A DNA stretch of 64,000 nt from Naegleria gruberi. Its lineage: Eukaryota. The stretch is from NCBI GenBank assembly GCA_000004985.1, contig GG738887.1, one strand, 5' to 3'. Numbering within the stretch: position 1 is the first letter of the stretch; each line of letters opens with the position of its first letter. The notes below the pieces were generated by a model that saw nothing but the letters and a program-made list of their open reading frames with translations, ran no database searches and was not told where the DNA came from. Positions 4,273 to 31,925 of this stretch are shown piece after piece. The translations under genes and the position numbers were made by a program.

Positions 4273-7200
4273 ATGAGTTCAATGCAGCCGAATGATGATA
4301 AAACACCACCAAATCAGCAAACACCGACTACTTCTACAAATCCTTTCGGTGCTGTTTTAAATAAGGCTGGTATACTCAGGAGGAGGATGTCAAGTCCTCA
4401 TGGTGATAATATTAACAAAGCAGAGGCACTGGTTACTAAGCAATTATCAAACTTGGAGAACTCTATCAAGGATACAGTGAAAAAAACTGTGGTAAAATTT
4501 GGTAATGAAGTTGATGATTTGATCGATAATTTAAATAAGATTGAGGATACATCAGCATTATTGAAGGAACAGATAGAAAAAGAGGCGGATCTTAAAAGGA
4601 AGCTTACGGAAGTAGAAAAGGAAAATGAGGATTTGAAGAAACAAGTAGAAAAGTTAAGCAAAGATTATAAATCAAAATGTGATGATGTTGAATCAAAGGA
4701 TTCTGCCATTGAAAAACTACTCAAGAGAGCCGCAGAAAGAGAAAAGGAGCTTAATGATACTAAGGATTTGCTAAGACAAAAAAATCAGAAAATTTCCTTT
4801 CTAGAAAATATCCACTCTGAAATTTTGAAAAATGCTACAAAAGAGGAGAAATTTAAATTGAGCTATATAGATTCAGAAACAAAGAGGATGGTGTTGGAAA
4901 ATGAAGTCAGCGATATGAAGAGAAGTCTGGAAAGTATGCAAGCTGAACAAGGTATCAAATCTTCTTCCAAGAGATTCCAAAATCAGTTGGAAGCGCAAGC
5001 TCTTGAAAAGGAGAAGGATAATCTTGAGAAACAAGTACAATCTCTTTTAAAACAATGTAAAGATACTGAGAGACAACGAGATGCTTGTAAAAAGATTGCC
5101 GCAGAAGCTAATGATAAAGTTACTAGAATGGAAGCAACATTAAAGGAATGTGAAGATAAGCGAGTGAAGGCAGTTGAAGAAACCATGAAGAGAAGTACGG
5201 AACTTAAGAATTCAGCACAAAAGATCAAGGAGTTGGAAACCAAATTGGCTCTAAGTGAACAAAAGATTCAAGATATCGAAGATCTTACATTGTTATCCAA
5301 GCTCCATGAGGAAGAAATGAAGGGAACCGGATCTGTAGAACAGTTGAGAAGACTGCACACCTACAGGCAAAATAAGCTGGATAAGGCCAATTCAAGTTCT
5401 TCTGTACAACTTCGTATCCTTGAGAAGGAACATAATGCTTTACGAATGAATTATGATCTTACCATGATGGAAGTTAGTAACTTATTTGATCTTAACCAAT
5501 CCTTAACTTCACAATTGAAGGAGCTTAAAGAAGGAGCAACACCTACAAATTCCGAAGAATGGAAGATTTTAAAGCAAGAAGAAAAATCAGAGTTGGAAAA
5601 TTTACAAACAATTCAAAAGTTAAAGGAAGAAATTGATAGATTGAGGGAAGAAAATGACAAATCGAAGAATGCCATTGAAATTAAATGTATGGAAATCTCA
5701 AGCTTTAAGGATCAAATTGATGAAATGAAATCAAGATTTCAAAATTTGTCAACCGAAGCTAAAAGTGATTATGAGACTTATGCCGAGAGGGAAACCAATT
5801 TATTGCGAAGTATGGATGCCTGTGAGCAAGTTATTGAAGAAAAGAAGAAGGAAATTGTTGAACTCGTGTCTACTAATAACACATTGAAGCAACAAATAGA
5901 AGAAGTGAGCACAACAATGAATGCAAAGATTGAAGAAATCCAGGAACAAAGTAAAAAGGAAATTGAAGAAATCACAGAAAAAAGCAACAAGAAGATTGAA
6001 GAAATTACAGAGAAAACCTCTAAACAAATTGAGGAAATTACGGAACAAACTTCAAAACAAATTGAGGAGGTAAAATCACAATATCAAAAGGAGCTTTGTG
6101 AAGCATCAGTTATCACTGATCCAAATGATCAATCTGAAAATGCATCCCAAACAGAACAAATTTCTGGAGATCTTAACTCTAAATCAGATATTGAATCAGA
6201 ATTGGATACTCTCAATCAACAACTTGAATTGGTCACTTCTCAAGTGAAAGAAATAACTGCATTGAAACAAGCAGAAAAGGAGAATTTTGATATAGATGAT
6301 AACAGCCAAGAAACAGGAAATGAAGGTTTTGCTTGATGAGAAAAAGAGAAACCTAGAAGAAATCATGTCCCTTAATAATCAAAGAACCAAACTTGAGGAC
6401 ATTGTAAAACAAGAAACAGAAAAGTTGGAACGTATTGTAAAACAGAAGAATCTTGTAATTTTAAGCCAAAATGATGTAAACTACGAAACACAACCAAGCA
6501 ACATTGAAATCATTGAAACTATTGAAACAAATAATGAAACCTTTTCCGTACAGGGAAGCAAAGAGGAGGAAGAGGACGTTGATGAGTTTGACATTGTTTA
6601 TTCTAATGAAATTCAAACTCCTAATCATTTAGAATCTGAAGAGCAAGCCAATACTGATGACGATATTTGTAATGTAGATTTACCACAGGATGGAACTAGT
6701 ATTTCTCAAAACTATGAACCTACTCCTGATTATTCATTACGGGAAGACCTCGAGCATGAAGACGAAATTATGAAGAGAGTCAAAGAACTGCAATCTTGTT
6801 TAAGTCCAGATTACGCTCTTACATCATATGAAGATGTGGAGCAACACCTTGGACATGAAGCCCAAACGAACACTACACCAATGTCTCTTGATCATTCTGT
6901 TGAGGGTACTCCCCTTACTCCTCTTAGTTTGTTATCTCCACAAACTGATGAACAGAGCTTGTCTGAGAAAAAGGATGTCTGTGTTGAAACAGATGTATTC
7001 TATGAGATTGAGCCAACAACCAAAGTCACCAAGTTTGAAAAGCTGTTTACCCAAAAGTGGAATGATTTTGAAGAAGATGAAAGTGATTATTTCCTCAACA
7101 TTCCTTCACCAAAAACTGCTAAAAAACAAGTCTACTATTATGAAAAGAAATATTTACATCTCAAGATGAAATATAGACAGATGGTTGAAGAACTTGTCCG

Positions 7201-10990: not shown

Positions 10991-12391
10991 ATGGCACAAC
11001 TTGAATCTAGCTCTTTCAATGCTAAATTAATAATAAATGAATTGGATCGTATAAAGGCTGATTATTTGAAGACTTGCTCCGATCATGGTGATTGTATTAT
11101 TAATTCTTCAAATTCCGATTGTTTAAATTCTTCATCACATAAAACTTTGGTTCAATTTATTGGAGAGGAAATGAAATTGAAACATGCTGTCAATGTGACC
11201 GTTCATGGGAAATATCCACAGAGATTAATTTGTTTGCATTATAATCAAACGAGAGCAAATTTTGAAAATTCATTGACTAGGGCATGTCGTGGAGTAATTG
11301 TAGATTTGGAAGAGATGAGGATTGTTCATATGCCTTTTTCAAAGTTTTTCAATTTTAATGAACCAATGGCTAAGAGAGATTCAGAAATTATTTCAGAACA
11401 TTTCGATCATGTTAAAATTTATGAGAAATTCGATGGATCAATTGTGAATTTTTACTTTTTTGATGGAGAATGGAGGGTGGCTTCATCATCAACTCCTGAT
11501 GGAAGTGCCAAGATGGGATTTTATTCAGTTTCAAAGGATAAAGAGGAAAATGAAAAACATAGACAGGAATCAAAGACTTTTGTATTTGCTGATTTGGTGT
11601 GGAATGCTTTTAATGACCTCGGTTTCAAAATACCACCAACAGAATTTGAGGGAAAATATTCATTTACATTTGAATTATTAACTCAAAAACATCCATTAGT
11701 TGTACAACATCCAGAACAGGATAATTTAATTTTACATGGTGTGAGATGCTTGGAAACATTTTCAGAAAAATCAATTGAACCATTTGCTCAACAATTCAAT
11801 TGGAAATACGCAACATGCGTTAAGGAAAAATTCGGATTCAAATCATTGGAAGATGTTTCCAAGATGGCTGATGAAAGAAATGCCTATGAACACGAAGGGT
11901 TTGTCGTTTGTTATGAAACTCCAGATAACAACGGGTCTGAATCAGTTGATTTCATTAGAGTGAAGATTAAAAATTCTGAATATGTGAAAATTTCACTCAC
12001 CTTATTCGATTCCGTGGAAAAAAGAGAAAACTCCTTTATAGAAATTATTAAGAAGAATGAATCTAGTGAATTTTTAGCTTATTTCCCTCAATTCGAATCG
12101 GCTTTCCACAGATTAAAGTTAGAATATAACTCCATAGTGGAAAAGTTGAACAATGTTAGAGGGAAAATAGAGGGAATAGTTGAGGAACTTGTAAAACAGG
12201 AAACTGACACTATCAGTGTCACAAGGATGAAAGCTCTTCAATCCATTGCCATTCAACAAGCCAAAGATGAACTCAAATTCTCCAAAACGATTGCAGATAT
12301 AATGTTTGGATTATGTTCTGATAGACAACTCATGGTTGAGGATGTTCTCAAATCAATGCCTCTTAAACGATACAAAACTCTCCTTTTCTAA
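10991..12391 (+). CDS. ATP-dependent polynucleotide (RNA) ligase, Rnl1/Rnl5-like nucleotidyltransferase
   Basis: Single 466-aa ORF. Covalent nucleotidyltransferase motif I is K-x-D-G in EKFDGSIVNFYFFDGEWRVASSS, motif IV is YEHEGFVVCYETPD and motif V is DFIRVKIKNSEYVK. No OB domain of the DNA-ligase/capping-enzyme type is evident, so it is Rnl-like. Confidence 0.6.
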   Translation: MAQLESSSFNAKLIINELDRIKADYLKTCSDHGDCIINSSNSDCLNSSSHKTLVQFIGEEMKLKHAVNVTVHGKYPQRLICLHYNQTRANFENSLTRACRGVIVDLEEMRIVHMPFSKFFNFNEPMAKRDSEIISEHFDHVKIYEKFDGSIVNFYFFDGEWRVASSSTPDGSAKMGFYSVSKDKEENEKHRQESKTFVFADLVWNAFNDLGFKIPPTEFEGKYSFTFELLTQKHPLVVQHPEQDNLILHGVRCLETFSEKSIEPFAQQFNWKYATCVKEKFGFKSLEDVSKMADERNAYEHEGFVVCYETPDNNGSESVDFIRVKIKNSEYVKISLTLFDSVEKRENSFIEIIKKNESSEFLAYFPQFESAFHRLKLEYNSIVEKLNNVRGKIEGIVEELVKQETDTISVTRMKALQSIAIQQAKDELKFSKTIADIMFGLCSDRQLMVEDVLKSMPLKRYKTLLF

Positions 12392-12591
12392 TTTATTCCA
12401 ATATTAATTATGCATAAAATCTAACAATTTACATTTCTTCCATGAATTGACGAGTTCAATTACATCAATTACACATTTTGATTTGTGCTAACGAGGAGAA
12501 GTTGAAATAAGCTTCTCCCTAGATTGTAAAGTTGCTCAACTGCGCCAAAACAATCGCACAATTTCAAAAAAAAAATCAAACTAATTGAATA

Positions 12592-13965
12592 ATGACTACG
12601 TGGCCCGAACATAGAGTGTTCAAAAGGCTTCACGGAGGAGCCTTTGTGTTGCTAGCAATTTATTGTACATTTAAACGAGTGTTTAGTCATGAAGCTTTGG
12701 ATGCCTTTCCGGAACGTGCCACTCGATTGGATATTTGGATGAAGAATATGTTTTTATTGATAATGGCAACATTGATGAGCTATTATTCGATTAAAAGAAT
12801 ACTCTCGGATATATTTGTAAATTTAAAAGGAATTAAGAGACAATTATTATTTATTATTTTAATTTATTTATCATTGGCATTGTATGGACAAGTTTATTCT
12901 AATATGAGTGGAAGAATGAAATCATTTTACTTTAGAATTTTCATAACATATGTTGGTAATTTGTGGCAAATGATAGCCATGCTATTCCTTACATTTTTGC
13001 TAGTGTTTTATGTTCCGATTTACTACATGATGAGGAAATTGAGTGACAATTTTGAGACAATGAAGAAAATTATATTATTTATTTCAGTAACTTTGTGTTT
13101 GTTTGGACTTTATCATACTTTGAGTCCAAGAGTTGTAATGGAACATTCAGTGAACGTTTCAAAAGGATTGGATCAAAAGAGATACATTAAGATTATTCCT
13201 ATTAGTGATGTACATTTGGGGCATTCAATGAGTGTTAAGGATTTTTCAAATTTGAGTCAGGACATTTTGAATATTGTAAATAGAGATCCAGAAAATACGC
13301 TTGTACTTTTTATGGGAGACTTTTTCACTTTTGAATCAGAATTTAACGTTGCCTTCGAAGATGCAATTTATGAAGGATTGAAACCACTCCAATCCATTCA
13401 CAAGAATGTCTATGTAGCTCTAGGAAATCATGATATAGATCTTCTGGATACTGTTCTTTACCAGCTAAAAAGATTACAAATTACAATTCTTACAGATGAA
13501 AGTTTGGTATTGAAGAAGAAACGAATTCAATTGACAGGTTTCAATTACTTCTTTAAGAATGCTGACATTTTATCTAAACAAGTAGCAAGTAATGCCAAGA
13601 TGGAGAAGGATGTAGATTTAAGACTTTTATTATTACATAATCCTTCTCACTTTAAATATGCTGCTAGTGAATTGAATGACAAGATTCCATCTATTACTTT
13701 TAGTGGACATTTTCACGGTGGACAATTCAGTGCTCGTAATTTCTTCAGATCTCTAAGGATAGGTTTTGTTGAGGCTATTACTGGTCATCCTGACTATGAA
13801 TGGTATGGATTTGATTTTGAATCTGAAACTGTCAAGTCCCTTAGCTCTATTGCTTTGAAACCTTCCAATCCATTACTCTATGTTTGTTCAGGGGCTGGTT
13901 TTTATGGACCTCCTTTACGAATTGGCACATCCTCCGAGTTACCAATTATTCATATCAATTACTAA
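12592..13965 (+). CDS. Transmembrane protein with calcineurin-like metallophosphoesterase domain (TMPPE-like)
   Basis: 457-aa ORF with about five N-terminal hydrophobic helices. Metallophosphoesterase motifs follow: IPISDVHLG, LVLFMGDFF, ALGNHD, LLLLHNPSH and GHFHGGQ. Confidence 0.65.
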   Translation: MTTWPEHRVFKRLHGGAFVLLAIYCTFKRVFSHEALDAFPERATRLDIWMKNMFLLIMATLMSYYSIKRILSDIFVNLKGIKRQLLFIILIYLSLALYGQVYSNMSGRMKSFYFRIFITYVGNLWQMIAMLFLTFLLVFYVPIYYMMRKLSDNFETMKKIILFISVTLCLFGLYHTLSPRVVMEHSVNVSKGLDQKRYIKIIPISDVHLGHSMSVKDFSNLSQDILNIVNRDPENTLVLFMGDFFTFESEFNVAFEDAIYEGLKPLQSIHKNVYVALGNHDIDLLDTVLYQLKRLQITILTDESLVLKKKRIQLTGFNYFFKNADILSKQVASNAKMEKDVDLRLLLLHNPSHFKYAASELNDKIPSITFSGHFHGGQFSARNFFRSLRIGFVEAITGHPDYEWYGFDFESETVKSLSSIALKPSNPLLYVCSGAGFYGPPLRIGTSSELPIIHINY

Positions 13966-15964: not shown

Positions 15965-17671
15965 TTACTTGTCAGTTACTTGCTCCTTTACAAAATCATA
16001 ATTTAACGGGAAGTCCTCATTTGCTTTGAGTTCTTGTTCAAGAGCATTCATAATCGCAAGTACAACATCCTCTCTCCAATAACGACCAGCAACTTGAATG
16101 CAAACTGGTAACCCCTTACTATTCTTAAAGTTTTGATTACAAATCTTAAGTGGGAGTTCATTTGGGTTTTTAGAGAGAGGGCAGGAAATGTGATTTTCTT
16201 CTTGTTCTGATTCTGAAACTCTGGTTATAGGACAAACACCAGCCGGGAGTCCAAGGTAATTGAAAAGATGTACATATGTCATGTTCAAAACAACATCTGG
16301 CACATTCTCATGTTTACAATTGACAGAGCTTGCAGGGCACAAAACAGCATCATATCTTCCCTTATCAAGCAACTCGAAGAATGATCTTCTGAAATCATCT
16401 CTGTTAGCTACATGTCCCCACAATTCTGAAACAGTAATAGGAAGGAAACTATCCATTGATTTGGCTAAAATTGTTTGACCCAACCATGAAACCACAGTTC
16501 CCAACACTCCAACAAACCATTTCGGTAACAAGGATACATATTTGATACTCTTGGCCATTGGTGTTAATTTACTTCCAGCTATTTCCTTTCTATAACAGCT
16601 CATTCCATCTCCCATTAAGAAATGAACATAGCTCCTCCAATTCTCAAATGTTTTCATTTCTTTTGGAAGTTCAATTTCTTCGACGTGAGCTCCAAGTTTT
16701 CTCAATGTTTGAGCTGCCTCATCAAGACCTCTTTTAACTGATTTTGGAACAGTGAGTATTCCATTGTCTTTGAAAAGTGCAATTCTCAACTTGGAAATAT
16801 CAATCTTGTATGGATCTCTCAACTCTACAGGTGGATGCTTGATAGATTCATGTGAAAATCCACTAGAATAATCATCGTATTCATATCTTGTTAAAACTTT
16901 CATGGCAGTAATCAAGTTACTTGTAGATCGTCCCATAGGACCCATTTGTGACATGATAGCTTCCATTCCTCTATACAGCTCAGCATGTCCACTCAATGTT
17001 AATCTTCCACTTGTTGGTTTCAATCCAAATATTCCACAATGTGATGAAGGCAATCTAATAGATCCTCCAATATCTGATCCAATTCCCAATATTGATCCTC
17101 CAGCTCCAATAATTGCTCCTTCTCCACCACTACTTCCACCAGAGGTACGTGTCAAATCGAATGGATTATTGGTTCTTCCATAAACTGGATTATCAGAATC
17201 ATCAGCAGCCAACATTAATGCAACATTTGTCTTTCCCAAAACGATGGCTCCAGCATTCTTTAATCTCTTCACAAGAATTCCATCATCCTGAGCGAGAATA
17301 CCCACTCTACTGCTTAAACCCATTGTACATTGAGTTCCTTTAACATGAATAGACTCTTTAATGGTAACAGGAATTGAAAATAAGGGTTTTTCACAGAGAA
17401 TCTTCTCAATCCATTCACTCATTAAATTTTCATCTTGATCCGTAGGTCTCTCCTCAGATAACCACTTATCCAATTTCAATGCCTCTTCTCTGGCCTCTTC
17501 AAAGAGTGGAATACAAACAGCATTTAAAAGTTTGTTGGTTTTCTCAATTCGTGAGATGAAATATTCAATCAATTTCAGTGATGTTAATTCTCCTCGGAGC
17601 ACTTGACGAGATAATTGTTCAGCAGGAATTTGAAAAATTTGTTTTCTATCATCATCAACATGTTGCGACAT
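15965..17671 (-). CDS. Amidase-signature enzyme, fatty-acid amide hydrolase-like
   Basis: 568-aa single-exon ORF. The AS signature is GGSSGGEGAIIGAGGSILGIGSDIGGSIRLPSSHCGIFGLKPTSGR, upstream of the conserved catalytic-lysine region of AS enzymes. Confidence 0.8.
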   Translation of the reverse strand: MSQHVDDDRKQIFQIPAEQLSRQVLRGELTSLKLIEYFISRIEKTNKLLNAVCIPLFEEAREEALKLDKWLSEERPTDQDENLMSEWIEKILCEKPLFSIPVTIKESIHVKGTQCTMGLSSRVGILAQDDGILVKRLKNAGAIVLGKTNVALMLAADDSDNPVYGRTNNPFDLTRTSGGSSGGEGAIIGAGGSILGIGSDIGGSIRLPSSHCGIFGLKPTSGRLTLSGHAELYRGMEAIMSQMGPMGRSTSNLITAMKVLTRYEYDDYSSGFSHESIKHPPVELRDPYKIDISKLRIALFKDNGILTVPKSVKRGLDEAAQTLRKLGAHVEEIELPKEMKTFENWRSYVHFLMGDGMSCYRKEIAGSKLTPMAKSIKYVSLLPKWFVGVLGTVVSWLGQTILAKSMDSFLPITVSELWGHVANRDDFRRSFFELLDKGRYDAVLCPASSVNCKHENVPDVVLNMTYVHLFNYLGLPAGVCPITRVSESEQEENHISCPLSKNPNELPLKICNQNFKNSKGLPVCIQVAGRYWREDVVLAIMNALEQELKANEDFPLNYDFVKEQVTDK

Positions 17672-17798: not shown

Positions 17799-18923
17799 AT
17801 GATGAACAAAATATCTATCGCTCATCTTCCCTACTTTTTAATGAAATGTCCTCCTCCGAGAATTCACGATCCAAATCGCCAACTTGCCATAGACCATCTA
17901 ATCCAACAATGCTTAAAACATTCAATAATTTCCTCCCCGAAACATGCTCAATTATTTCGTTCCAAACTCGACCAATACAATCATATTGGATTAATTTATA
18001 ATTGTTATTATCCATCGAATTTAAATTATCAAAATGTTGTTGATGTTGATGATGCTGGAAAGGCTTGCCAACAAGTACAATTGCAACATTTGAAATTTAT
18101 TACCAATTATTTCTTCTTCTTGTTTAGTGTTGATGATCGGATTGATAGTGTTGTGGAGAATGATGATAGGGAGGCGATGGAAAGGAAGAATTGTTTGATT
18201 GATCAGTTGGTTGAGGTTTTGAGGGTTTATAGAAAGTTGGAGGATGGTAAGGTTGAGAGTAAGGATCCACATGTCAATTTCCTGATTCAAATTATGGAGG
18301 ATTTACATTTAATGACTGGAAATCAGGAGACAATTGATAGATTTGTGGGAAATATGGAGGGATTTTTCAATATTGGAGTGAGGGGTAATCAAGAGAATGA
18401 AACACCTGAAAATTATTTGGAGAGGAGAATTTATGATAGTGCCACTTATGCCATGTTGAATGTTTTGGAAATTACTTCGAGTAGAAATGCAGTTGGGTTG
18501 ATTGGGGAGGATTACAATACTGAACTCTTCTCAAAAGCTCACAGATTGTGTGCTATTGTTTTTTCAATGGTTAATGATTTACTTTCCTATCATAAGGATG
18601 TGGTACTGCCATCAGGAGGAAATTTATTGGGATTGGATTCGAATTTATCGTATATTCAGGTATTGTTGAAGAATAATAAGGATCTTTCATTAGAGCAGGC
18701 AACAAATCAATGTTTAGACTATATCCTTGAATCGAAATCTCAATTTGAGGCCATTATGAAATTGTGTGTAGATAATTGTAACGAGAAGCAATTGGATTAT
18801 ATTAGAGGAGTAGAAAAGCTCATGGATGGAATGTGTCTTTGGATGCTCTATTCCAACAGATACAGACACGAGGAGCAAGTTTATGAGGAATTGACAAAAT
18901 TGGTTGATGAGGAAAAATTCTAG
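17799..18923 (+). CDS. Class I terpene synthase (microbial/amoebal-type TPS)
   Basis: 374-aa ORF. It has an Asp-rich metal-binding motif FLFSVDDRID (DDxxD-like) and a downstream NSE/DTE-type motif VNDLLSYHKD, spaced as in sesquiterpene synthases of dictyostelids, bacteria and fungi. Confidence 0.7.
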   Translation: MMNKISIAHLPYFLMKCPPPRIHDPNRQLAIDHLIQQCLKHSIISSPKHAQLFRSKLDQYNHIGLIYNCYYPSNLNYQNVVDVDDAGKACQQVQLQHLKFITNYFFFLFSVDDRIDSVVENDDREAMERKNCLIDQLVEVLRVYRKLEDGKVESKDPHVNFLIQIMEDLHLMTGNQETIDRFVGNMEGFFNIGVRGNQENETPENYLERRIYDSATYAMLNVLEITSSRNAVGLIGEDYNTELFSKAHRLCAIVFSMVNDLLSYHKDVVLPSGGNLLGLDSNLSYIQVLLKNNKDLSLEQATNQCLDYILESKSQFEAIMKLCVDNCNEKQLDYIRGVEKLMDGMCLWMLYSNRYRHEEQVYEELTKLVDEEKF

Positions 18924-18961: not shown

Positions 18962-20812
18962 TTACAAGTATTGAAGATTATGTTGTTGAATCTTATATCT
19001 AGAGAATGTATCCAGGGCAAGGTTTGACTTGACAGCATTGAACAGCTTATCGAACAAATCAAGTTGTCCTACACCTTTAACAATAACACCCATTTCCTTC
19101 TTTACAACATGGCCAGCAAGATTGATTGGAAAGGATGATTTTTCCTCCATTAAGAAGGTCTGAATGATACTCTCTTGTTTGATCATTCTCTCATGAGTAT
19201 GTTTAAATGTCTTGTATTCCAATACTGCATCCAAGAATAACATATTTTCCTCAGATTTTTCAGATTTACAGAATTGTTTAAATCTTTCCTTTTCTTCAGA
19301 GTTTAAGAGTAATCTGTCAAATTCATTGTCCATTGAGAAGAGTGAACTGGATTTAGAAATTGAAGAGCCCAACATTTGTGATGAAATTCTACCAACAAAG
19401 ACAAACATATGTTGATCTCCAGATGACATTTTAGATTTGGTGATATAGGCATCAAAATCAATATTCTTTCTCTTCTTTGTGACACCAGTGAATGGATGTG
19501 ACATGAGATCATCATAACTGGAAATAACTTGACTCAAGCCCTCACCTGCTTTGGCAGCCTCTTTCAATTGAGGGAAGATTTTATCGAGAGGCATCTTGGT
19601 AATTCCTTCAACATCCACAGCACTATAACCAAATCTTTCATAGAATGCAGTGTTTGCATGTGAAATAAAACCATCAGGTGTAACTGTCAAGACAATATCC
19701 TTAATACTATTCATAATGGAGGTTGTTCTTTCTTCAGCAACTGAAATTCTTTCTAAAAGCTTTTTCAATAATTCCTGCTCTTGAATTTGTTGCTCCAAGA
19801 GAACATCCAAACTATCCAACATGTAATTAATATTCTTGGAGACAGTTCCTAGCTCATCAGTACCTGTTGTTGAATCTGAAACTGAAACTCTTTGTTTGCT
19901 GTCATTGGATGCTGTAATACGTTGAATTTGAGTGGTGAGTGTTGTGAGACGTGACAAGACTCTTCTCTCAATGAAAAAGATGACAATCATGGAAGCAATG
20001 GCACAAACAACAAGCAATAAACCAATGGCCAACAAGACCGATTGAATTCCCAACAAGTAAACATCTCTTGCAATATCAGTTCTTACAATCATCAACTTGT
20101 TACCATAAATATCATTCACTAATTCTAGAGAGGCAAATCTTTGTTCACTCAACATAGTTCCATTAGTTTTCCAGCATTGTCTCTTTGAAAGAGAATCAGA
20201 AGAGAGAACTTCATAGGCAAAAACATCCAAATTGTCCCAATCAGCAGAAGTTTGATAAACATAAGTTCCATTCACTGAGCTCACTTGTTTAGAATAACTT
20301 GAAACAACTGCATCACTTGTATCCGAAAGTAAATGGAATGAGCAACACAACTGAGCACTATTTGCCAATGCATTAATAAATTTCGAGCTCATAATTCTAC
20401 CAAAAACCAAAACTCCTGAAGTATCTGATTGATCTGTATAATCACTCACAGACAATGGAGATGCAGAAAGCATAACAAGTTGTGAATTGTAATTATAAAA
20501 TCCACCATTTCTAGTATTTGGAGAGTCCATGTTTTTCATCAATGGATGACTTGATGGGAGGTATTGTAAAAACGTTGGAAGTGATGAAATACTTGTAGAA
20601 ATAATTCCAGTTGAGAAATCAATTGATCTTGGAACAGCAACTGTTCCATTCTTGAAATAATAAACAACCCAATTAACTTTAGATGATGTCATGATTGCCT
20701 TTGGAAAGTTTGAATCCATATAATCACTAACTTCATTGACAGTTGCCAAATTATTGGCATATCTCTTGAAAATATCATACGGAACTGTCCAAGCAGAAAA
20801 TGGCAATAAATT
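18962..20812 (-). CDS. Single-pass transmembrane sensor-like protein: extracellular domain, TM, coiled coil, PAS, C-terminal RGS domain; 5' end unresolved
   Basis: Track ORF 18962..20806 starts on TTG and the frame is open to a stop at about 20815, so the ATG exon is missing. One TM helix is IQSVLLAIGLLLVVCAIASMIVIFFI. After it comes a HAMP-like/coiled-coil segment (RRVLSRLTTLTTQIQRITAS…ELLKKLLERISVAEERTTSI), then a PAS-like segment (IKDIVLTVTPDGFISHANTAFYERFGYSAVDVEGI), then an RGS box (LLNSEEKERFKQFCKSEKSEENMLFLDAVLEYKTF…LDTFSRYK). Confidence 0.65.
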   Translation of the reverse strand, partial: NLLPFSAWTVPYDIFKRYANNLATVNEVSDYMDSNFPKAIMTSSKVNWVVYYFKNGTVAVPRSIDFSTGIISTSISSLPTFLQYLPSSHPLMKNMDSPNTRNGGFYNYNSQLVMLSASPLSVSDYTDQSDTSGVLVFGRIMSSKFINALANSAQLCCSFHLLSDTSDAVVSSYSKQVSSVNGTYVYQTSADWDNLDVFAYEVLSSDSLSKRQCWKTNGTMLSEQRFASLELVNDIYGNKLMIVRTDIARDVYLLGIQSVLLAIGLLLVVCAIASMIVIFFIERRVLSRLTTLTTQIQRITASNDSKQRVSVSDSTTGTDELGTVSKNINYMLDSLDVLLEQQIQEQELLKKLLERISVAEERTTSIMNSIKDIVLTVTPDGFISHANTAFYERFGYSAVDVEGITKMPLDKIFPQLKEAAKAGEGLSQVISSYDDLMSHPFTGVTKKRKNIDFDAYITKSKMSSGDQHMFVFVGRISSQMLGSSISKSSSLFSMDNEFDRLLLNSEEKERFKQFCKSEKSEENMLFLDAVLEYKTFKHTHERMIKQESIIQTFLMEEKSSFPINLAGHVVKKEMGVIVKGVGQLDLFDKLFNAVKSNLALDTFSRYKIQQHNLQYL

Positions 20813-20900
20813 CTACAATTCAATTCATAACAAAAATCAATATAATCCATTAACAATATAATTTAAAAAACAATATAATCATCAAATTACCAAATTTCAA

Positions 20901-21638
20901 TCAACCTACAACTAAATTAATATTCAAATCATCATATAAAACTTTCATCATTCTCCTAGAAGCATTCGAACTATCATTCTTCTCCAATTGACCAAAATTC
21001 ACAGGTAAAAGAGTTCCAATAATCACAACAAATGCCAAAATCATAATTGTAAACATGAATGTTAAAACTACAAGTGTTGTAATTCTCAAACTCTTTAAAC
21101 AACTCCAAACTTGTTCCTTATTTGGACCTTTTCTTTCTCCATTTCCAAACAAATTTTTATCCTTATTCTTCTCCACAATTCGTTGAACTTCTGCTTTTAA
21201 AGGATCGACAAGTACGAGTCCACTATTTACTAAAGAAGATGATGTGGACTGTCTCTTGTCATTTGATGAAATACCCATTGATTGATCGGTAGAGGATTGG
21301 CTTCCTACAGAGCCGATAATAATGGCTTGATTTTCAGAAGGTGATGTTGCCATGGGTGAATTTTTGTATTGTTGATGTGCTGACAGCGAATTTGAACTAT
21401 TGACACTTGACGTCACAGGAAGAACACCTCCTGTTGTTGTAGTTGTTGTGTTGTTGTTATTGTTGTCTGTTGGAAGGATATTGCTGAAGGTATCCATTTC
21501 CTTGCTCATTTTTTTGATTGGCAGGTGGCAGGTATTGGATGACTTTAATTTTTTTTGTGATCGAAAGGTTTCTCTTGTGTCAAAGTTTCCGTTATGTTTG
21601 TTGGTAACATGCCATCTGTCAGTTATCGATTTGGACAA
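20901..21638 (-). CDS. Hypothetical S/T/N-rich protein with a C-terminal transmembrane helix
   Basis: 245-aa ORF. It has a poly-N/poly-T low-complexity region and a hydrophobic segment LVVLTFMFTIMILAFVVIIGTLL near the C-terminus. No recognisable domain. Confidence 0.35.
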   Translation of the reverse strand: MSKSITDRWHVTNKHNGNFDTRETFRSQKKLKSSNTCHLPIKKMSKEMDTFSNILPTDNNNNNTTTTTTGGVLPVTSSVNSSNSLSAHQQYKNSPMATSPSENQAIIIGSVGSQSSTDQSMGISSNDKRQSTSSSLVNSGLVLVDPLKAEVQRIVEKNKDKNLFGNGERKGPNKEQVWSCLKSLRITTLVVLTFMFTIMILAFVVIIGTLLPVNFGQLEKNDSSNASRRMMKVLYDDLNINLVVG

Positions 21639-21768: not shown

Positions 21769-22707
21769 TTACATTCCAATAAATAATGCAAAAATAATCA
21801 ATACGAAACTCAACCAAGTACTATACGAAACTTGATAACTTTCACTCGATCTACTGGTACGTGCCACAAAAGCTCCAAAACTTCTTCCATTACCAAAAGT
21901 TCTCACATAACAAGAAGGACAATTTTTCACATTATTTCTCTGCCAAGCACTCAAATCATAGGCATAACCAATAGTTGCATGAATTTTCTTTGAGAGAATC
22001 ATTTCGAATTGTTCATCATATCCTAAAGGAAACTTTTGAGCGAGTGGGAATGATTGGTTAGCTACACCTTCATATAAAGTTCCTGCATAATATCCAATTT
22101 TGTAAAATGGTTGATTGAGTTGTGAAATGGAAGTGGCATTGACATATTTATCCATGTCTAGCTCACCACGAAGGAAACCATCAAAAGTGAAACCATATGG
22201 ACATGAAGCAAATGTAACAAGTTTTGTTCTTTCTTCAGTAATGATAGCATTAGAAACCACAACGTCACATGTTCCACTATTTAAGGCATTTGTCATGGAA
22301 TCGAAAAATCCTTGACTTGTGTTGACAAGTACATATTGAGCTTCCAATGTTGTTTTGTAATTGGTATTCAATTGATCGATAATTCCTTTACCAATCATTC
22401 GATACAAGTCAAAATAAACCTTTTCTAATTCTGTCACATCTTCATAACACATCTTTAATGATTTGACAGATGAAGGAATTGGATTTCTTGTTGGGTAGGC
22501 AGGTAATTGAGGACTACATTGAGGAACTGTGAATGGTAAATTGACAGTCACAAAATCTTGAAAACTTTGTGTGATAACAAGTCTTGCCATGGCAGCATCA
22601 AAAGCTTGATTAAATTCGACACTTGACACTTGACTTTGGGCAGCTGTTGCATAGAAAAACAATAAACAACACAAACAATATGAAACTATAGACGATATCT
22701 TGACCAT
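21769..22707 (-). CDS. Secreted, probably GPI-anchored protein with a periplasmic-binding-protein-like flavour
   Basis: The ORF runs to 22731, and the likely start is the internal Met giving the signal peptide MVKISSIVSYCLCCLLFFYATAAQSQ. The C-terminus is hydrophobic (WLSFVLIIFALFIGM), consistent with a GPI-attachment signal. Cys residues are scattered, and the weak PBP-like motif is IHATIGYAYDLSAW. Confidence 0.4.
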   Translation of the reverse strand: MVKISSIVSYCLCCLLFFYATAAQSQVSSVEFNQAFDAAMARLVITQSFQDFVTVNLPFTVPQCSPQLPAYPTRNPIPSSVKSLKMCYEDVTELEKVYFDLYRMIGKGIIDQLNTNYKTTLEAQYVLVNTSQGFFDSMTNALNSGTCDVVVSNAIITEERTKLVTFASCPYGFTFDGFLRGELDMDKYVNATSISQLNQPFYKIGYYAGTLYEGVANQSFPLAQKFPLGYDEQFEMILSKKIHATIGYAYDLSAWQRNNVKNCPSCYVRTFGNGRSFGAFVARTSRSSESYQVSYSTWLSFVLIIFALFIGM

Positions 22708-23138
22708 TTTTTTTTGATTCTGTTCATACACTCAACAGCTTCAATCATAATTGTGAAAAACAGTTTCGTAATCATTAAAGATGGAAATGATTGAACATTT
22801 TTGGATAGTGAGTGGGTGAAATTAGCAAATGCAAATGGGGTTTGGGTAACAACTCATAGAGTTATTTCTCCCAAGTTGAACATGTCAAACGCATCTGGGG
22901 CAAGTAGTGGCAGTTTTTAAACAAAACCGAAAACGAATCTTGTAACGGTTGACTGGAAATTTCACATTATCACAATGAAATTCTTTAGAAATCTCTTTTC
23001 ATGGAATCTAAAATCATACTGCCTTTCCATATTTCAGATAAGCGGCAGCAACTTCCTGTTAAAATTATGTGAACTCTAGCAAATTACAATAAACATTAAA
23101 TTATTAAATTATTACAATTTTAATTCATTGAAGAAAAA

Positions 23139-28220: not shown

Positions 28221-31200
28221 ATGATCACTGCTTCTTCATCTTCGGGTGAAAGGAATGAAAAACTTTCATCCATCGCTTTGGATATTAATAATGATAGGAA
28301 TAACAACAAACCTCTCTTATCCTTTACCATCTACAATAATTGTTCATCGTCTTCATTAGAAGCTTCCTTGCCAAATACTGCAAGTTTATTAAATTGTGAA
28401 TTTAGTATTTCACCAATCAATGCTACTGATGAGAACAATCAAGTTACAATGATTGGAGTGGAAATTACACAAGCCAAGTTTGTAAATGTTAGGAGAACTG
28501 TATTTGATGCAATTTTAAGTGATTTTCCTTCGGGTTGGATTGAACCAAAGGATGTGGATCATGTTTTCTTTACTGAACATGAGTCAGTTATCAAATTGAT
28601 GGAAGGAGCTCTTTGCTATGATGATGATGGGTTCAAGTTCTTTTCTACATTGCAATCAGCACCTGTTGATGTAGATTTAAAAGATTTGAATAGTTTTTGT
28701 GATGATCTTTTTGGGTTGAATGGAACATTTGTTCTGTATGATGAATCAGCTCCATTATGTATTAGTTGTAAAGAACTGTAACAAGTGGAATAGTTATGCA
28801 AGATTGGGAAGTGGAGATATTCCAGAGGCATTCCACAAGTTTAGGATTTATCATTCGAAAATTACTGTCTTGCAAGAGTCTCAGGCCTATGAGCTGATTG
28901 ATCAAAGTGACGAAATCAAATATTATTTAAGTTGTGTTCAAGAGAATTTACCACTCGTCAGGGTTACGCCAAGAATTCTATCCATGTTTACAGAAGGATT
29001 GGAAAAGCTTACAATTTCCAATAGTTTCTCAGAGAATTCTTTGGCAATGTCAGTATATACAGCTTCCTTCTCCAACATTTTGCAATCTCATCCTTTTTCA
29101 AATGAGGATCAAATCATTTCACTTATGAATTCATCTTTAACATGCTACGAATTTCCCAGAGTAGATCACAGATTTATTAGGTCAATTACTTCAAAATGTA
29201 GAAATGGAGTTTTTGAATGTCAAGTACATTTACCTGAGATATCCGAGACTAACAGGTTATTTAACAAGTTAGGAACTGATGGATTTCTTAAAGTGAAAAT
29301 CATTGGACAAGTTCCCTCTGGAATATATTTACAGGGAAAGACCTATTTACCGCTTGGAGGTTCATCCAACATGATGAGGGAGAGAAATATGTATTTTTAT
29401 GACTCATCCTTGTATGAATCTGTGGAGACTATCATTTCACAAATGGGAGAAATATCTATTGATAATTTGCATCAATTATGTGAAACTGAATGTAATGAAC
29501 CGGAGCAAATCAATAATGGAGAACCTGGATATCTCACTCCCTCTATGACTCATTCATTAATTGCTTTGGGCGTTCAACCACTAGTTCTTCAAACTATTTT
29601 TGAAGAATGGTTCAATTCTACCGTCAGTAATTTGACCAATCCAAACTTTTTGCTTGATTTACTAAAGGGAAGGTGTAGGGAAACTCTTCCTGCTGTCCAA
29701 AATCTCTCCGAGATACCAGACAACCCATTTATTGAAGACTTATTGCGACATTTAGTATCTTCCCATTTGCAGAAAGTTCAAAATAACCTCATTATTCCAA
29801 TTGACAAGTCAATTACAACTACAAGTTTAATTGATGAGAATAAGTGTTTAAAAGAAAATGAAATGATGGTTATACTTGGAAATGAATATTTAGAGGATGG
29901 TACGATTGTTCTAGTGTGTAATGAGCCATGTCTTTCCCAATCAAATGTTAAACTTTTCACAGTTAGAAATGACGAAACTTTGAAAGTCAAGTACGAAACA
30001 AACCATTCATTAGTTATTCTCCCAAGTATCCTGAAGAGTGATAGTGTCTTTGCATGTTGGGACTCAAGAATGATTCCAACTCTTGTTTCCAGTCAAATTA
30101 CCAATTCATACCAAAAATTGAAAACAGTACAATCTGAGGATTTACAGAGTCAAATTCTTGACGGATGGATTGCTGTTTCTGACAAGGAAGGCGCAACATC
30201 CACAAAGGCAATTGAGCTTTCTAATTTATTTAATGAAATTAGGAATAGCAACAAGATTGAGCTTCCTAATTGGTTTAACAGCTGTCTAATTCCATCTCTA
30301 GATATTTGGCAAAATTCAGATTGGACCAACTAGAAAAAATAGAAAGCAAATTAAATGGATATAAGAAGAATCTTGCAGATCAACAGAAAGAGCAGGATGA
30401 TATTTACATAGTAGGATCCTTATCAATTCTACTCCATGATCCAAACGAAACAGACTGTGATTGGTTTATTGAACCAGTTTCTGATAATCCAACATTCTTT
30501 GATGATCTATGTCACAGACTTTCGACTTATTTCAAACCAATCAAGGAAGAATATCACAAATCCGTTCCTCTATTTAGAATTTATTTACAAGAAAGGGATT
30601 TGAGATTTTTAGAATTGATAGATTTGACCAATGGAGATACTGGGTTCAGAAAAAAGCATCACATGAGATTATATTTAGCACAACAGCCGAAACTCTTGCT
30701 TATTCTCAGAATTTTATTCGATATTATCAAAAAGATTTGTGCTTTCCATGTTAAAACTTTCCAACTCACTTGGGAAGTTGTGGATTTTTGCATTTTGAGA
30801 AATTACATTCACAGGGAAAGACCACCAACGAGAAAGGAGTCAGTGGACCAGGAGAAACAGTTCTCAGACTCTTCTTTTATGAAATCAGTTCTTTCTAAAT
30901 GTTTGGAATCTGAAAATTTTGAAAAGGAATCCGAACTAATCATTGATTTTATGAAATTTTTCAAATTGAAAAATAACATGGAATTTCCAGATAATCTTGA
31001 CGATTCAAAATCCTATTCAGCTACCAGTGATGAAAGAAAACTTGAATATGCTCATGATTTGATTCAAACATGTCTTATCAACTTGCACCTTTATAGAGAT
31101 TTCACCAAGGCAATTTTGCCAACACAAGTAATTCAAAAAACATTTGAGGAATTTAAGAATGTTGATGCTAAACCTGTTTTCAGAGCTGAATCTAGAGATT

Positions 31201-31925
31201 TTGTGGATGGCTCTGTATTGACACTTTTTAAAGGAGATTCAGGAGAAAGTCCAATTAATTTCACATTTTACAAAGGTCATGTTCATGCTCAACATGCCAA
31301 ACTTCCAATCCATAGGCCTTCTTTAGAAAAATACAATCCAGAATCTAATAACTTGATATCGCCTATGTATGATCAAAAGCTTTCTAGTCAATTAACTAAA
31401 ATGGAAGATAAACCAGAGAATTACGTGTTTATTATTAGATTTGGAGTTTACTATTTGGTGAATATGCAAAAATCAATCTTCTCTGAAATTACCAAGCCAG
31501 AAAATTCATCTGTGTTTAATGAATGTATGAGAAAGAAAGCAAAAGTAGTGAAAGGTCCCTCAGCAGACTCATTTGCTACTGGTGTCAGTGAAAACGTTGT
31601 GCCTTTCCTTCGTCCAACCGATTCTCCTGCAAGAATGACTGAATATTCAGTCAGTTTTTACAAGAATGTCAATAACAAATCAACTGAATTCAAAGTGAGA
31701 TTGGACGAAAATATGAAATTGAAAACCAAAGTAATTAGTGGTCAATTGAGAGTAATTTCACATACTTTTATTGGTAAAAACAATGATATGAGATTCTACA
31801 TTAATCACTTGCAATATTTGGATGTAAATAATGAAATTTCAGAACTAGTTGACAAATTGGACAAGAAAGGATGGTTAATCAAACAAGGAGCCAATGACAC
31901 AGAAATAGTTTTAACAAGAAACTAG
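28221..31925 (+). CDS. Large hypothetical protein (about 1260 aa if joined) broken into three frame-shifted ORFs (28221..28781, 28720..30333, 30306..31925)
   Basis: Consecutive same-strand ORFs overlap by 62 nt and 28 nt in different frames. No GT..AG intron of plausible length fits at either junction. No domain recognised. This is one gene with two frame disruptions, or a pseudogene. Confidence 0.4.

Follow-up and report, generated by a model that had tools for sequence, protein, structure and literature searches.

The window analysed here, a 64,000-nucleotide (nt) stretch of contig GG738887.1 of Naegleria gruberi, carries on its minus strand a two-exon gene whose 816-amino-acid (aa) product joins a sensor of bacterial type to a eukaryotic RGS box. 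We propose that this protein is a ligand-gated GTPase-activating protein (GAP) for G-alpha, built as a two-pass plasma-membrane receptor and belonging to a heterolobosean family. The mechanism is plausible and specific, and judging from the sequence we regard it as moderately probable. An earlier note on this DNA had described an ectodomain, a single transmembrane (TM) helix, a HAMP/coiled-coil linker, a PAS fold and an RGS box at 18962-20812. Pfam searches and a hydropathy scan revealed that this order is correct; the interval is the second exon of the gene. Positions below are those of the window, and aa numbers are those of the spliced protein.

The ORF listing gave a minus-strand open reading frame (ORF) at 18962..20806, 614 aa long when started at an internal TTG. 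Reading the sequence, we found that the frame is actually open back to 20812, directly after a TAG acceptor, and that an upstream ORF on the same strand (20901..21638) ends in ...NINLV and then meets GTAGGT. Splicing 20910 to 20812 yields the 816-aa protein from two exons:

20910..21509, minus strand: exon 1 (aa 1-200), from the first in-frame ATG (21509-21507) of the ORF 20901..21638
20813..20909, minus strand: intron of 97 nt, phase 0, GTAGGT...TAG, from the sequence read and in silico splicing
18962..20812, minus strand: exon 2 (aa 201-816 and the stop codon 18962-18964), the interval under study, from the ORF listing, Pfam and splicing

Exon 1 covers a low-complexity N-terminus and TM1 and runs 29 residues into the ectodomain. 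Three comparisons supported the junction. In N. lovaniensis, the annotated orthologue C9374_006285 (837 aa, 66% identity) reads ...YDDLRTNLG/NLLPFSAW, with the same residue at the join. An alignment of nine relatives, some of which are uninterrupted metagenomic ORFs, is continuous through the splice point. Finally, in a 91%-identical orthologue on the related contig L003 (Logan SRR25266757) an intron sits at this codon too, and its donor is the canonical GTAAGT; the donor in the window (20904-20909) is GTAGGT. Together, these comparisons lead us to conclude that the N-terminal ORF and the ORF at 18962-20812 are one two-exon gene. Its G+C content (~0.33-0.35) is the same as that of the flanks, and the window sequence recurs in an ENA metagenome contig, where the neighbour is again the terpene synthase. 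No paralogue or further RGS or CHASE4 gene was found within the 64-kb window.

In the spliced protein the domains follow one another as TM1, a CHASE4 loop (~280 aa), TM2, HAMP, coiled coil, PAS, linker and RGS. RGS (PF00615, aa 698-807, E 2.7e-13, 50.8 bits against a cut-off of 23.9) and CHASE4 (PF05228, aa 229-360, E 1.7e-11, 44.9 bits against 26.2) were above the Pfam threshold, and HAMP (PF00672, aa 481-535, E 1e-5, 26.2 bits against 25) passed marginally. The exon-2 ORF alone gave similar values (RGS 1.8e-13, CHASE4 1.3e-11, HAMP 7.2e-6, PAS/PAS_8 4e-4). The RGS box of the earlier note was thus recovered at a significant E-value, as were its HAMP-like linker and an ectodomain of the Cache superfamily, to which CHASE4 belongs. 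When we compared a profile of the family with solved structures, it matched RGS, CHASE4-type, PAS and HAMP chains, the HAMP region meeting the Af1503 HAMP structure 2y21 (E 3.1e-4). In the window protein there was no Pfam match at E <= 1 to HisKA/HATPase_c, MCPsignal or GGDEF/EAL, and the chain terminates 9 residues past the RGS box, with no effector domain after it.

The complete CHASE4-TM-HAMP-PAS-RGS architecture was found by profile-coverage mapping in 43 of 154 collected proteins, which correspond to 38 new 50%-identity representatives; counts out of 43 below refer to this set. Compared with the L003 orthologue, the ratio of nonsynonymous to synonymous substitution rates (dN/dS) was 0.11 overall, which indicates purifying selection. 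It was lowest in the RGS box (0.035), and was 0.061 in PAS and 0.21 in the ectodomain. Because the architecture recurs in 43/154 proteins and dN/dS is 0.11, we do not consider it a product of chance. The parts of the protein are placed as follows:

21084..21509, minus strand: N-terminal region (aa 1-142), hydrophilic and rich in S/T/N/Q by composition, with the short conserved motif DPLKAEVQRIVEKNKD; presumably cytoplasmic
20997..21083, minus strand: TM1 (aa ~143-171), a signal-anchor helix after a conserved C..SLR.xT motif, from a Kyte-Doolittle scan; conserved in relatives
20063..20996, minus strand: sensor ectodomain of CHASE4 type (aa 172-450), interrupted by the intron; Pfam core aa 229-360 (20333-20728)
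20345-20347 and 20174-20176, minus strand: invariant Cys pair C356 and C413 (43/43 family members)
19967..20062, minus strand: TM2 (aa ~451-482), between CHASE4 and HAMP, from the hydropathy scan
19808..19972, minus strand: HAMP (aa 481-535), starting at the end of TM2, with a DELG motif and invariant E520, from Pfam
19733..19807, minus strand: coiled-coil signalling helix from HAMP to PAS (aa ~536-560), from a comparison of anchor spacings
19385..19732, minus strand: PAS (aa ~561-676), below the Pfam cut-off; N587 and F590 invariant in the family
19322..19384, minus strand: Ser-rich PAS-RGS linker (aa 677-697), from a comparison of linkers; dN = 0 over 21 codons against L003
18992..19321, minus strand: RGS box (aa 698-807) with S720, E722 and N723 (SEEN motif), N764, D801, T802 and R805, from Pfam and an alignment to RGS10

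The N-terminal motif DPLKAEVQRIVEKNKD is also present in N. lovaniensis (P0003; P numbers denote database proteins). The single TM helix of the earlier note did not hold once exon 1 was joined to exon 2. The protein has two, with TM1 coming from the upstream exon (20910-21509), which gives the classical bacterial TM1-sensor-TM2 layout. A signal peptide, which the earlier note had suggested looking for, is not present; exon 1 supplies a hydrophilic N-terminus of 142 aa followed by TM1.

We then asked what the RGS box tells about the output. In a HMMER alignment to RGS10, the window segments EKSEENMLF, PINLAG and LDTFSRY lie opposite EFSEENVLF, QVNVEG and YDSYSRF. We take these positions to be those of RGS4 S85/E87/N88, N128 and D163/S164/R167, the residues by which RGS4 touches the switch regions of G-alpha. 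The equivalents of the RGS4 contacts were all present in the window protein, as S720, E722, N723, N764, D801, T802 and R805. They were also largely kept throughout the family: the equivalent of N128 is Asn in 38/43 proteins, those of N88 and E87 are each retained in 37/43 and that of R167 in 36/43, and an acidic residue (D/E) occupies the D163 position in 39/43. The solved structures that the family profile matched best were RGS18, 2, 16, 5, 6, 10 and 4, which are canonical boxes of the R4, RZ and R7 types (E 5e-14 to 5e-12). Within this range, RGS18 gave E 4.8e-14 and RGS4 E 5.4e-12, whereas the RGS-homology domain of GRK2 type was far weaker (E 1e-6). By its contact residues, the box therefore appears to be of the GAP-competent class, and GAP activity is what these residues predict.

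The segment between the sensor and the PAS domain also carries information about coupling. The Glu of the HAMP DExG motif (E520) is invariant in 43/43 proteins. Its distance to the near-invariant E560, at the start of the PAS N-cap, was 40 residues (26 proteins), 33 residues (15 proteins) or 39 residues (2 proteins), so that the main difference (40 versus 33) equals exactly one heptad. The 12 residues following the E560 anchor are fixed in length in 43/43. Variation of length in heptad steps is a signature of a continuous coiled-coil signalling helix, as in HAMP and S-helix systems. In 27/43 proteins the PAS-RGS linker is exactly 30 residues long, charged and helical-looking by composition. 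The heptad spacing and the charged 30-residue linker are typical of rigid helical coupling in bacterial sensors. As to whether the sensor is MECHANICALLY coupled, a HAMP-to-PAS relay is thus well supported as a prediction. The idea in the earlier note that bacterial sensor logic had been given a GAP for G-alpha as its output gains support from the conserved G-alpha contacts and from this exact heptad indel in the HAMP-PAS helix.

We next consider the identity of the sensor. Among the extracytoplasmic sensors of bacteria, CHASE4 is placed in the Cache superfamily (PMC4822843). CHASE4 reached 39.6-53 Pfam bits in 7 of 8 scanned proteins, a set made up of full-architecture paralogues and of the cyclase relatives described below; P0031 had no CHASE4 match. 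In addition, the ectodomain part of the family profile matched the solved chain 9p50_A, annotated as a diguanylate cyclase (E 8.5e-9). From these matches we identify the previously unnamed ectodomain as a CHASE4 domain of the Cache superfamily. For the bacterial CHASE4 of PA2072/IsmP, extracellular ATP and an iron-related signal are known as ligands or cues, and N216, H218, D227 and K228 are the ATP-binding residues of PA2072.

The topology was approached by analogy. A hydropathy scan found two TM segments, 256-325 aa apart, in 26 of the 40 full-architecture proteins scanned (39 from the database plus the window protein), and the window protein has only two hydrophobic segments. An NGT sequon at aa 255, in the loop between them, is kept in 30/43 proteins. 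The RGS box is taken as cytoplasmic for three reasons: a long hydrophilic N-terminus precedes TM1 with no signal peptide, bacterial CHASE4 is always periplasmic and HAMP always cytoplasmic, and the inter-TM loop holds both the invariant Cys pair and the NGT sequon. We infer that the N-terminus and the RGS box are in the cytoplasm and CHASE4 is outside, where C356 and C413 could form a disulfide. Homology with bacterial CHASE4/HAMP sensors predicts a cytoplasmic HAMP, and the RGS box shares its side of the membrane; a box outside the cell would have been at odds with the earlier note.

It took an exhaustive HMMER profile search to reveal the family. A word-index homologue search had returned five orthologues only; the profile built from the orthologues gave 3997 matches at E <= 1e-3 and 50 at E <= 1e-30. 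In six family members analysed with Pfam, RGS was recognised in 6/6, CHASE4 in 5/6 (not P0031) and HAMP in 5/6 (not P0018). The closest database proteins are from Naegleria. Named members come from N. gruberi (XP_002670055, XP_002671054), N. lovaniensis, Willaertia magna (three) and Acrasis kona (three), and the rest are metagenomic. This is thus a multigene family present in at least three heterolobosean genera, Naegleria, Willaertia and Acrasis. In public annotation its members are called only 'predicted protein', 'RGS/HAMP/PAS domain-containing protein' or 'RGS21'.

Both halves of the protein also occur in other combinations. The best non-RGS matches to the sensor half were CHASE4-HAMP-class III cyclases, including one from Acrasis kona; next below them came bacterial-type CHASE4-HAMP-PAS histidine kinases and similar proteins (P0069, P0062). 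The PAS-RGS half, in turn, matched proteins with an N-terminal CHASE or NIT sensor, and among the three named Willaertia matches of this kind two have NIT and one has no recognised sensor domain. Since CHASE4-HAMP is found before cyclases and PAS-RGS after CHASE or NIT, sensor and output behave as interchangeable modules.

The two ectodomain cysteines set eukaryotic and bacterial-type sensors apart. C356 and C413 are invariant in the 43 RGS-linked sensors and in the cyclase-linked ones, while in the 73 bacterial-type matches the first position holds Ser or some other residue and the second is mostly a gap. A neighbour-joining tree of CHASE4, TM2 and HAMP placed the bacterial-type sequences in one clan and those with the Cys pair in its complement; the tree is rough, carries no support values and its rooting is uninformative. 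These data would fit a single acquisition of a bacterial sensor, which may then have adapted to the secretory pathway, expanded and been shuffled between RGS and cyclase outputs. We also noticed P0050 (1228 aa), in which an ATG14/Vps38-like region is followed by a C-terminal CHASE4 with the Cys pair; it is an odd fusion or a merged gene model.

Several results weigh against a ligand-gated receptor GAP. First, the PAS domain of the earlier note was only partly confirmed. In the window protein PAS and PAS_8 (aa 561-616, E 7e-4) scored 20.0 against 22.6 and 19.8 against 21.8, below the Pfam cut-off; proteins with a homologous cassette exceed it (P0058 PAS_8 28.5, P0061 PAS 29.8), and the PAS region of the family profile matched the solved chain 3mjq (E 1.3e-4). 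Second, the structure models, whose input was confined to five orthologues, were of low confidence. The AlphaFold2 model of a full-length orthologue had a predicted local distance difference test score (pLDDT) of 38.7 and was helical across the RGS region at a pLDDT of ~40. The ectodomain model had a pLDDT of 50.3, with a core at 65-83 and a membrane-proximal subdomain below 50. For the ectodomain model, a prediction that the earlier note had suggested, Foldseek returned only bacterial periplasmic PDC/dCache/CHASE4/LuxQ/DctB/WalK sensors (E 7e-5 to 5e-3), among them the PA2072/IsmP CHASE4 structures 8z6n, 8wct and 8z5k, at TM-scores of 0.3-0.5. With a model at that pLDDT we take the fold search as weak corroboration; the 9p50_A profile match is the stronger evidence for the type of the ectodomain.

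Third, no independent signal for the membrane topology was found, and the NGT sequon at aa 255 and the Cys pair are the hints that are left. There was no positive-inside bias around the two TM helices of 26 proteins (K+R sums 58/69/64/73), and N-glycosylation sequons, which are denser in the ectodomain (1.69 versus 1.11 per 100 aa; 19/24 proteins), were not significantly so per Asn (p 0.24). Fourth, the PA2072/IsmP ligands are not transferable to the window protein, because the pocket is in the membrane-proximal subdomain, which is poorly alignable here. Finally, the window orthogroup and two Willaertia paralogues have a Ser-rich PAS-RGS linker, GRISSQMLGSSISKSSSLFSMDNEF, in place of the charged one. 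Rigid coupling to the RGS box is therefore least secure in the window protein, where the 21-residue linker is probably flexible. As this linker is protein-identical between the window and L003 (dN = 0, 21 codons), it may be a conserved phosphoregulatory segment. The PAS-to-RGS step is uncertain in the window protein, where phosphorylation or steric gating may take the place of a rigid helix.

The same linker lends itself to another explanation, that the protein is a membrane-tethered RGS not controlled by its ectodomain. CHASE4 and the TM helices would then mainly serve localization and dimerization, and control would be exerted via PAS (by redox state, a metabolite or a partner) or via phosphorylation of the linker, for example to trigger endocytosis. 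In AtRGS1, phosphorylation of the C-terminus leads to endocytosis. Such control would fit a Ser-rich linker that has replaced the helical one and yet is perfectly conserved between two species, and it would fit a PAS domain that is more conserved than the ectodomain (dN/dS 0.061 versus 0.21). However, CHASE4, the Cys pair and the HAMP DExG motif are kept in 43/43 proteins, which is hard to explain if transmembrane signalling is irrelevant, and the HAMP-PAS helix has a heptad-quantised length. We consider this explanation unlikely, although it is the one that fares best among the alternatives.

It is less likely still that the RGS box serves to bind G-alpha or as an effector module and not as a GAP, as in RGS-RhoGEF and GRK2, with the sensor recruiting or sequestering activated G-alpha where ligand binds. 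There is precedent for this, since RGS-RhoGEFs of Naegleria and Entamoeba serve as G-alpha effectors (PMC9283941), and EhRGS-RhoGEF matched the family profile (E 1.2e-10). The window family, however, conserves the Asn equivalent to RGS4 N128 together with the SEEN and D-[ST]-x-x-R contact motifs, canonical GAP-competent boxes score highest against its profile, and nothing effector-like follows the RGS box in the few residues that are left. An artefact (a chimera of the assembly, contamination from bacteria or a false merger of two genes) is effectively refuted. In its favour are the bacterial type of the sensor half and the end of homology on L003, 23 nt short of the end of exon 1. Against it, CHASE4 through RGS lie in one uninterrupted ORF, the G+C content equals that of the flanks, a relative shares the spliceosomal intron, separately assembled genomes of four named species contain this fusion, and dN/dS is 0.11.

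A ligand-gated GAP thus remains the reading that we favour, and we propose the following mechanism for it. TM1 would act as a signal anchor, leaving the N-terminus in the cytoplasm and the ~280-aa CHASE4 domain outside, and TM2 would lead back into the cytoplasm. In a homodimer, a ligand bound to CHASE4 would displace TM2, and HAMP and the coiled coil would pass this displacement on to the PAS dimer. A change in the PAS dimer would alter the availability or geometry of the RGS boxes, which would speed GTP hydrolysis on one or more Naegleria G-alpha. The net role would be that of a ligand-gated off-switch that works without a G-protein-coupled receptor (GPCR), or of an on-switch if the ligand inhibits. 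Topology, dimerization, ligand dependence, GAP activity and the G-alpha partner are all inferred here.

The previous report on N. fowleri G proteins by Bosch et al. (2022) revealed that some G-alpha exchange nucleotide faster than they hydrolyse GTP and are thereby self-activating (PMC9283941). Because several Naegleria G-alpha exchange nucleotide spontaneously, GAP activity is a natural point of control, and with self-activating G-alpha a receptor-controlled GAP is a logical input device. In the same study the N. fowleri genome was found to encode 28 seven-transmembrane (7TM) RGS proteins and 79 other RGS proteins, and the 7TM-RGS proteins accelerate hydrolysis on selected G-alpha (PMC9283941). 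In the text and supplements covered, the architectures of the 79 others are not described and HAMP and CHASE are not mentioned.

Among known systems, the 7TM-RGS proteins (Arabidopsis AtRGS1, the 28 of N. fowleri, and those of Trichomonas) are the closest functional analogue. They share with the window protein a receptor-like N-terminal membrane part and a C-terminal cytoplasmic RGS box, and they act where G-alpha self-activates and the GAP is the regulated step (PMC9283941). Nevertheless, the window protein is not a member of this class, as it has two TM helices and not seven, receives its input through CHASE4 and a HAMP/coiled-coil/PAS relay, and has no 7TM or GPS features. The comparison with plant 7TM-RGS proteins in the earlier note therefore stands as a functional parallel, though not for a one-TM protein. 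Small mammalian R4/RZ proteins (RGS10, RGS18, RGS4, RGS16), which include the best solved matches, have in common with the window protein the SEEN motif, the Asn 'thumb' and D-S/T-x-x-R; unlike it, they are soluble or lipid-anchored and without a transmembrane sensor.

On the sensor side, bacterial CHASE4 proteins have the same TM1-CHASE4-TM2-HAMP-PAS order and the same Pfam family. Examples are P. aeruginosa PA2072/IsmP, with a periplasmic CHASE4 and a cytoplasmic PAS-GGDEF-EAL, and CHASE4-HAMP-PAS histidine kinases such as P0069. Their output is GGDEF/EAL, a histidine kinase or a methyl-accepting chemotaxis protein, whereas that of the window protein is RGS. The eukaryotic clade further differs from them in its invariant Cys pair, the second Cys of which falls in a stretch missing from the bacterial-type sequences, in a longer ectodomain (~280 aa), in lower Pfam scores (40-50 versus 134-149 bits) and in having an intron. 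The closest non-RGS relatives of the sensor are the heterolobosean CHASE4-HAMP class III cyclases (Acrasis kona KAL0484916, which is P0038, and metagenomic P0035, P0040 and P0051; 131-189 bits). The Cys pair occurs in them too, and in the rough neighbour-joining tree their branches fall among those of the RGS-linked sensors, but the cyclase follows straight after HAMP and there is no PAS-RGS cassette. Conversely, in CHASE- and NIT-PAS-RGS proteins (Willaertia magna KAL9641597 and KAL9643125; metagenomic P0058, P0064, P0111 and P0130) an extracellular sensor of bacterial type precedes a homologous PAS-RGS cassette (82-116 bits to the profile), but the sensor is CHASE or NIT and HAMP was not detected.

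We found no description of a CHASE4-HAMP-PAS-RGS architecture in the searchable literature, and an earlier mention in comparative RGS surveys is possible. In the part of the 2016 Cache survey considered here, the partners of CHASE4 include histidine kinases, methyl-accepting chemotaxis proteins and cyclic di-GMP cyclases among other categories, RGS is not mentioned, and one Cache protein, a cyclase, is mentioned in Naegleria (PMC4822843). The system is of a known kind, that of receptor-RGS proteins and GAP-gated G-protein signalling, and its sequences were already public, although unnamed; it is not categorically new.

The surroundings of the gene provided several further observations. Immediately upstream, the minus strand carries an ORF of 320 aa (21769-22731) with a signal-like N-terminal stretch, a C-terminal hydrophobic tail and a weak match to SBP_bac_3, the bacterial solute-binding protein family 3 (E 1e-5, 25.7 versus 26.4 bits). 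A role for this protein as a LuxP/LuxQ-like co-receptor was considered and dropped because the adjacency is absent in N. lovaniensis (L001) and on L003. On the other side, convergent with the RGS gene and with 38 nt between the stop codons, is a microbial-type terpene synthase (17799-18923, plus strand; Terpene_syn_C_2, E 4.4e-12), a neighbour that is also present on L002 and L003. Beside it is a full-length amidase-signature enzyme (15965-17671, minus strand; Pfam Amidase, E 6e-87). Farther away, two overlapping ORFs (28720-30333 and 30306-31925, plus strand), the first of which matches eukaryotic RNA-dependent RNA polymerase (RdRP, E 1.1e-17), are probably one gene split by a frameshift or an intron.

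Contig L003 differs from the window at one end of the RGS gene. Its positions 5000-5830 were compared with window 20933-21509, and at the point where homology stops, unrelated sequence takes the place of the upstream part that carries TM1 in the window. The next genes on L003 are an RNA ligase and a metallophosphoesterase, a pair that in the window lies on the other side of the RGS gene, at 10991-13965. The break is either a rearrangement that has decapitated the gene in that strain or a chimeric contig. In the window the pair consists of a T4-type RNA ligase (10991-12391, plus strand; RNA_lig_T4_1, E 2e-30) adjoining a calcineurin-like metallophosphoesterase (12592-13965, plus strand). As the two are adjacent on L003 too, this suggests a conserved two-gene unit, possibly for RNA repair.

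To our knowledge, receptor-RGS proteins have so far been known as 7TM-RGS proteins, from plants, Trichomonas and Naegleria. CHASE4-HAMP-PAS-RGS proteins would be a second, structurally unrelated class of receptor-GAP beside them. In such a two-pass receptor the GAP follows a relay on which there is detailed work from bacteria (piston or rotation of the TM helix, the HAMP four-helix bundle and a heptad-phased coiled coil). It also adds a purely eukaryotic effector to the outputs known for CHASE4, CHASE and NIT sensors, and it illustrates the modular reuse of one acquired sensor with RGS or cyclase outputs. The pathogen N. fowleri is lethal, and its G-protein pathways are under consideration as drug targets (PMC9283941). 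A family of putative cell-surface receptors whose fold is of bacterial type and which lack a human counterpart has practical interest.

More broadly, the window gene may be one receptor of a whole GPCR-independent chemosensory layer in heteroloboseans, in which CHASE4, CHASE and NIT sensors would gate an RGS GAP on self-activating G-alpha through a HAMP/coiled-coil/PAS relay, the same sensors being alternatively wired to cyclases. We put this wider proposal forward tentatively, with somewhat less than even confidence. If true, it would represent a mechanical hybrid in which receptor signalling of the prokaryotic kind is joined to the heterotrimeric G-protein signalling of eukaryotes.

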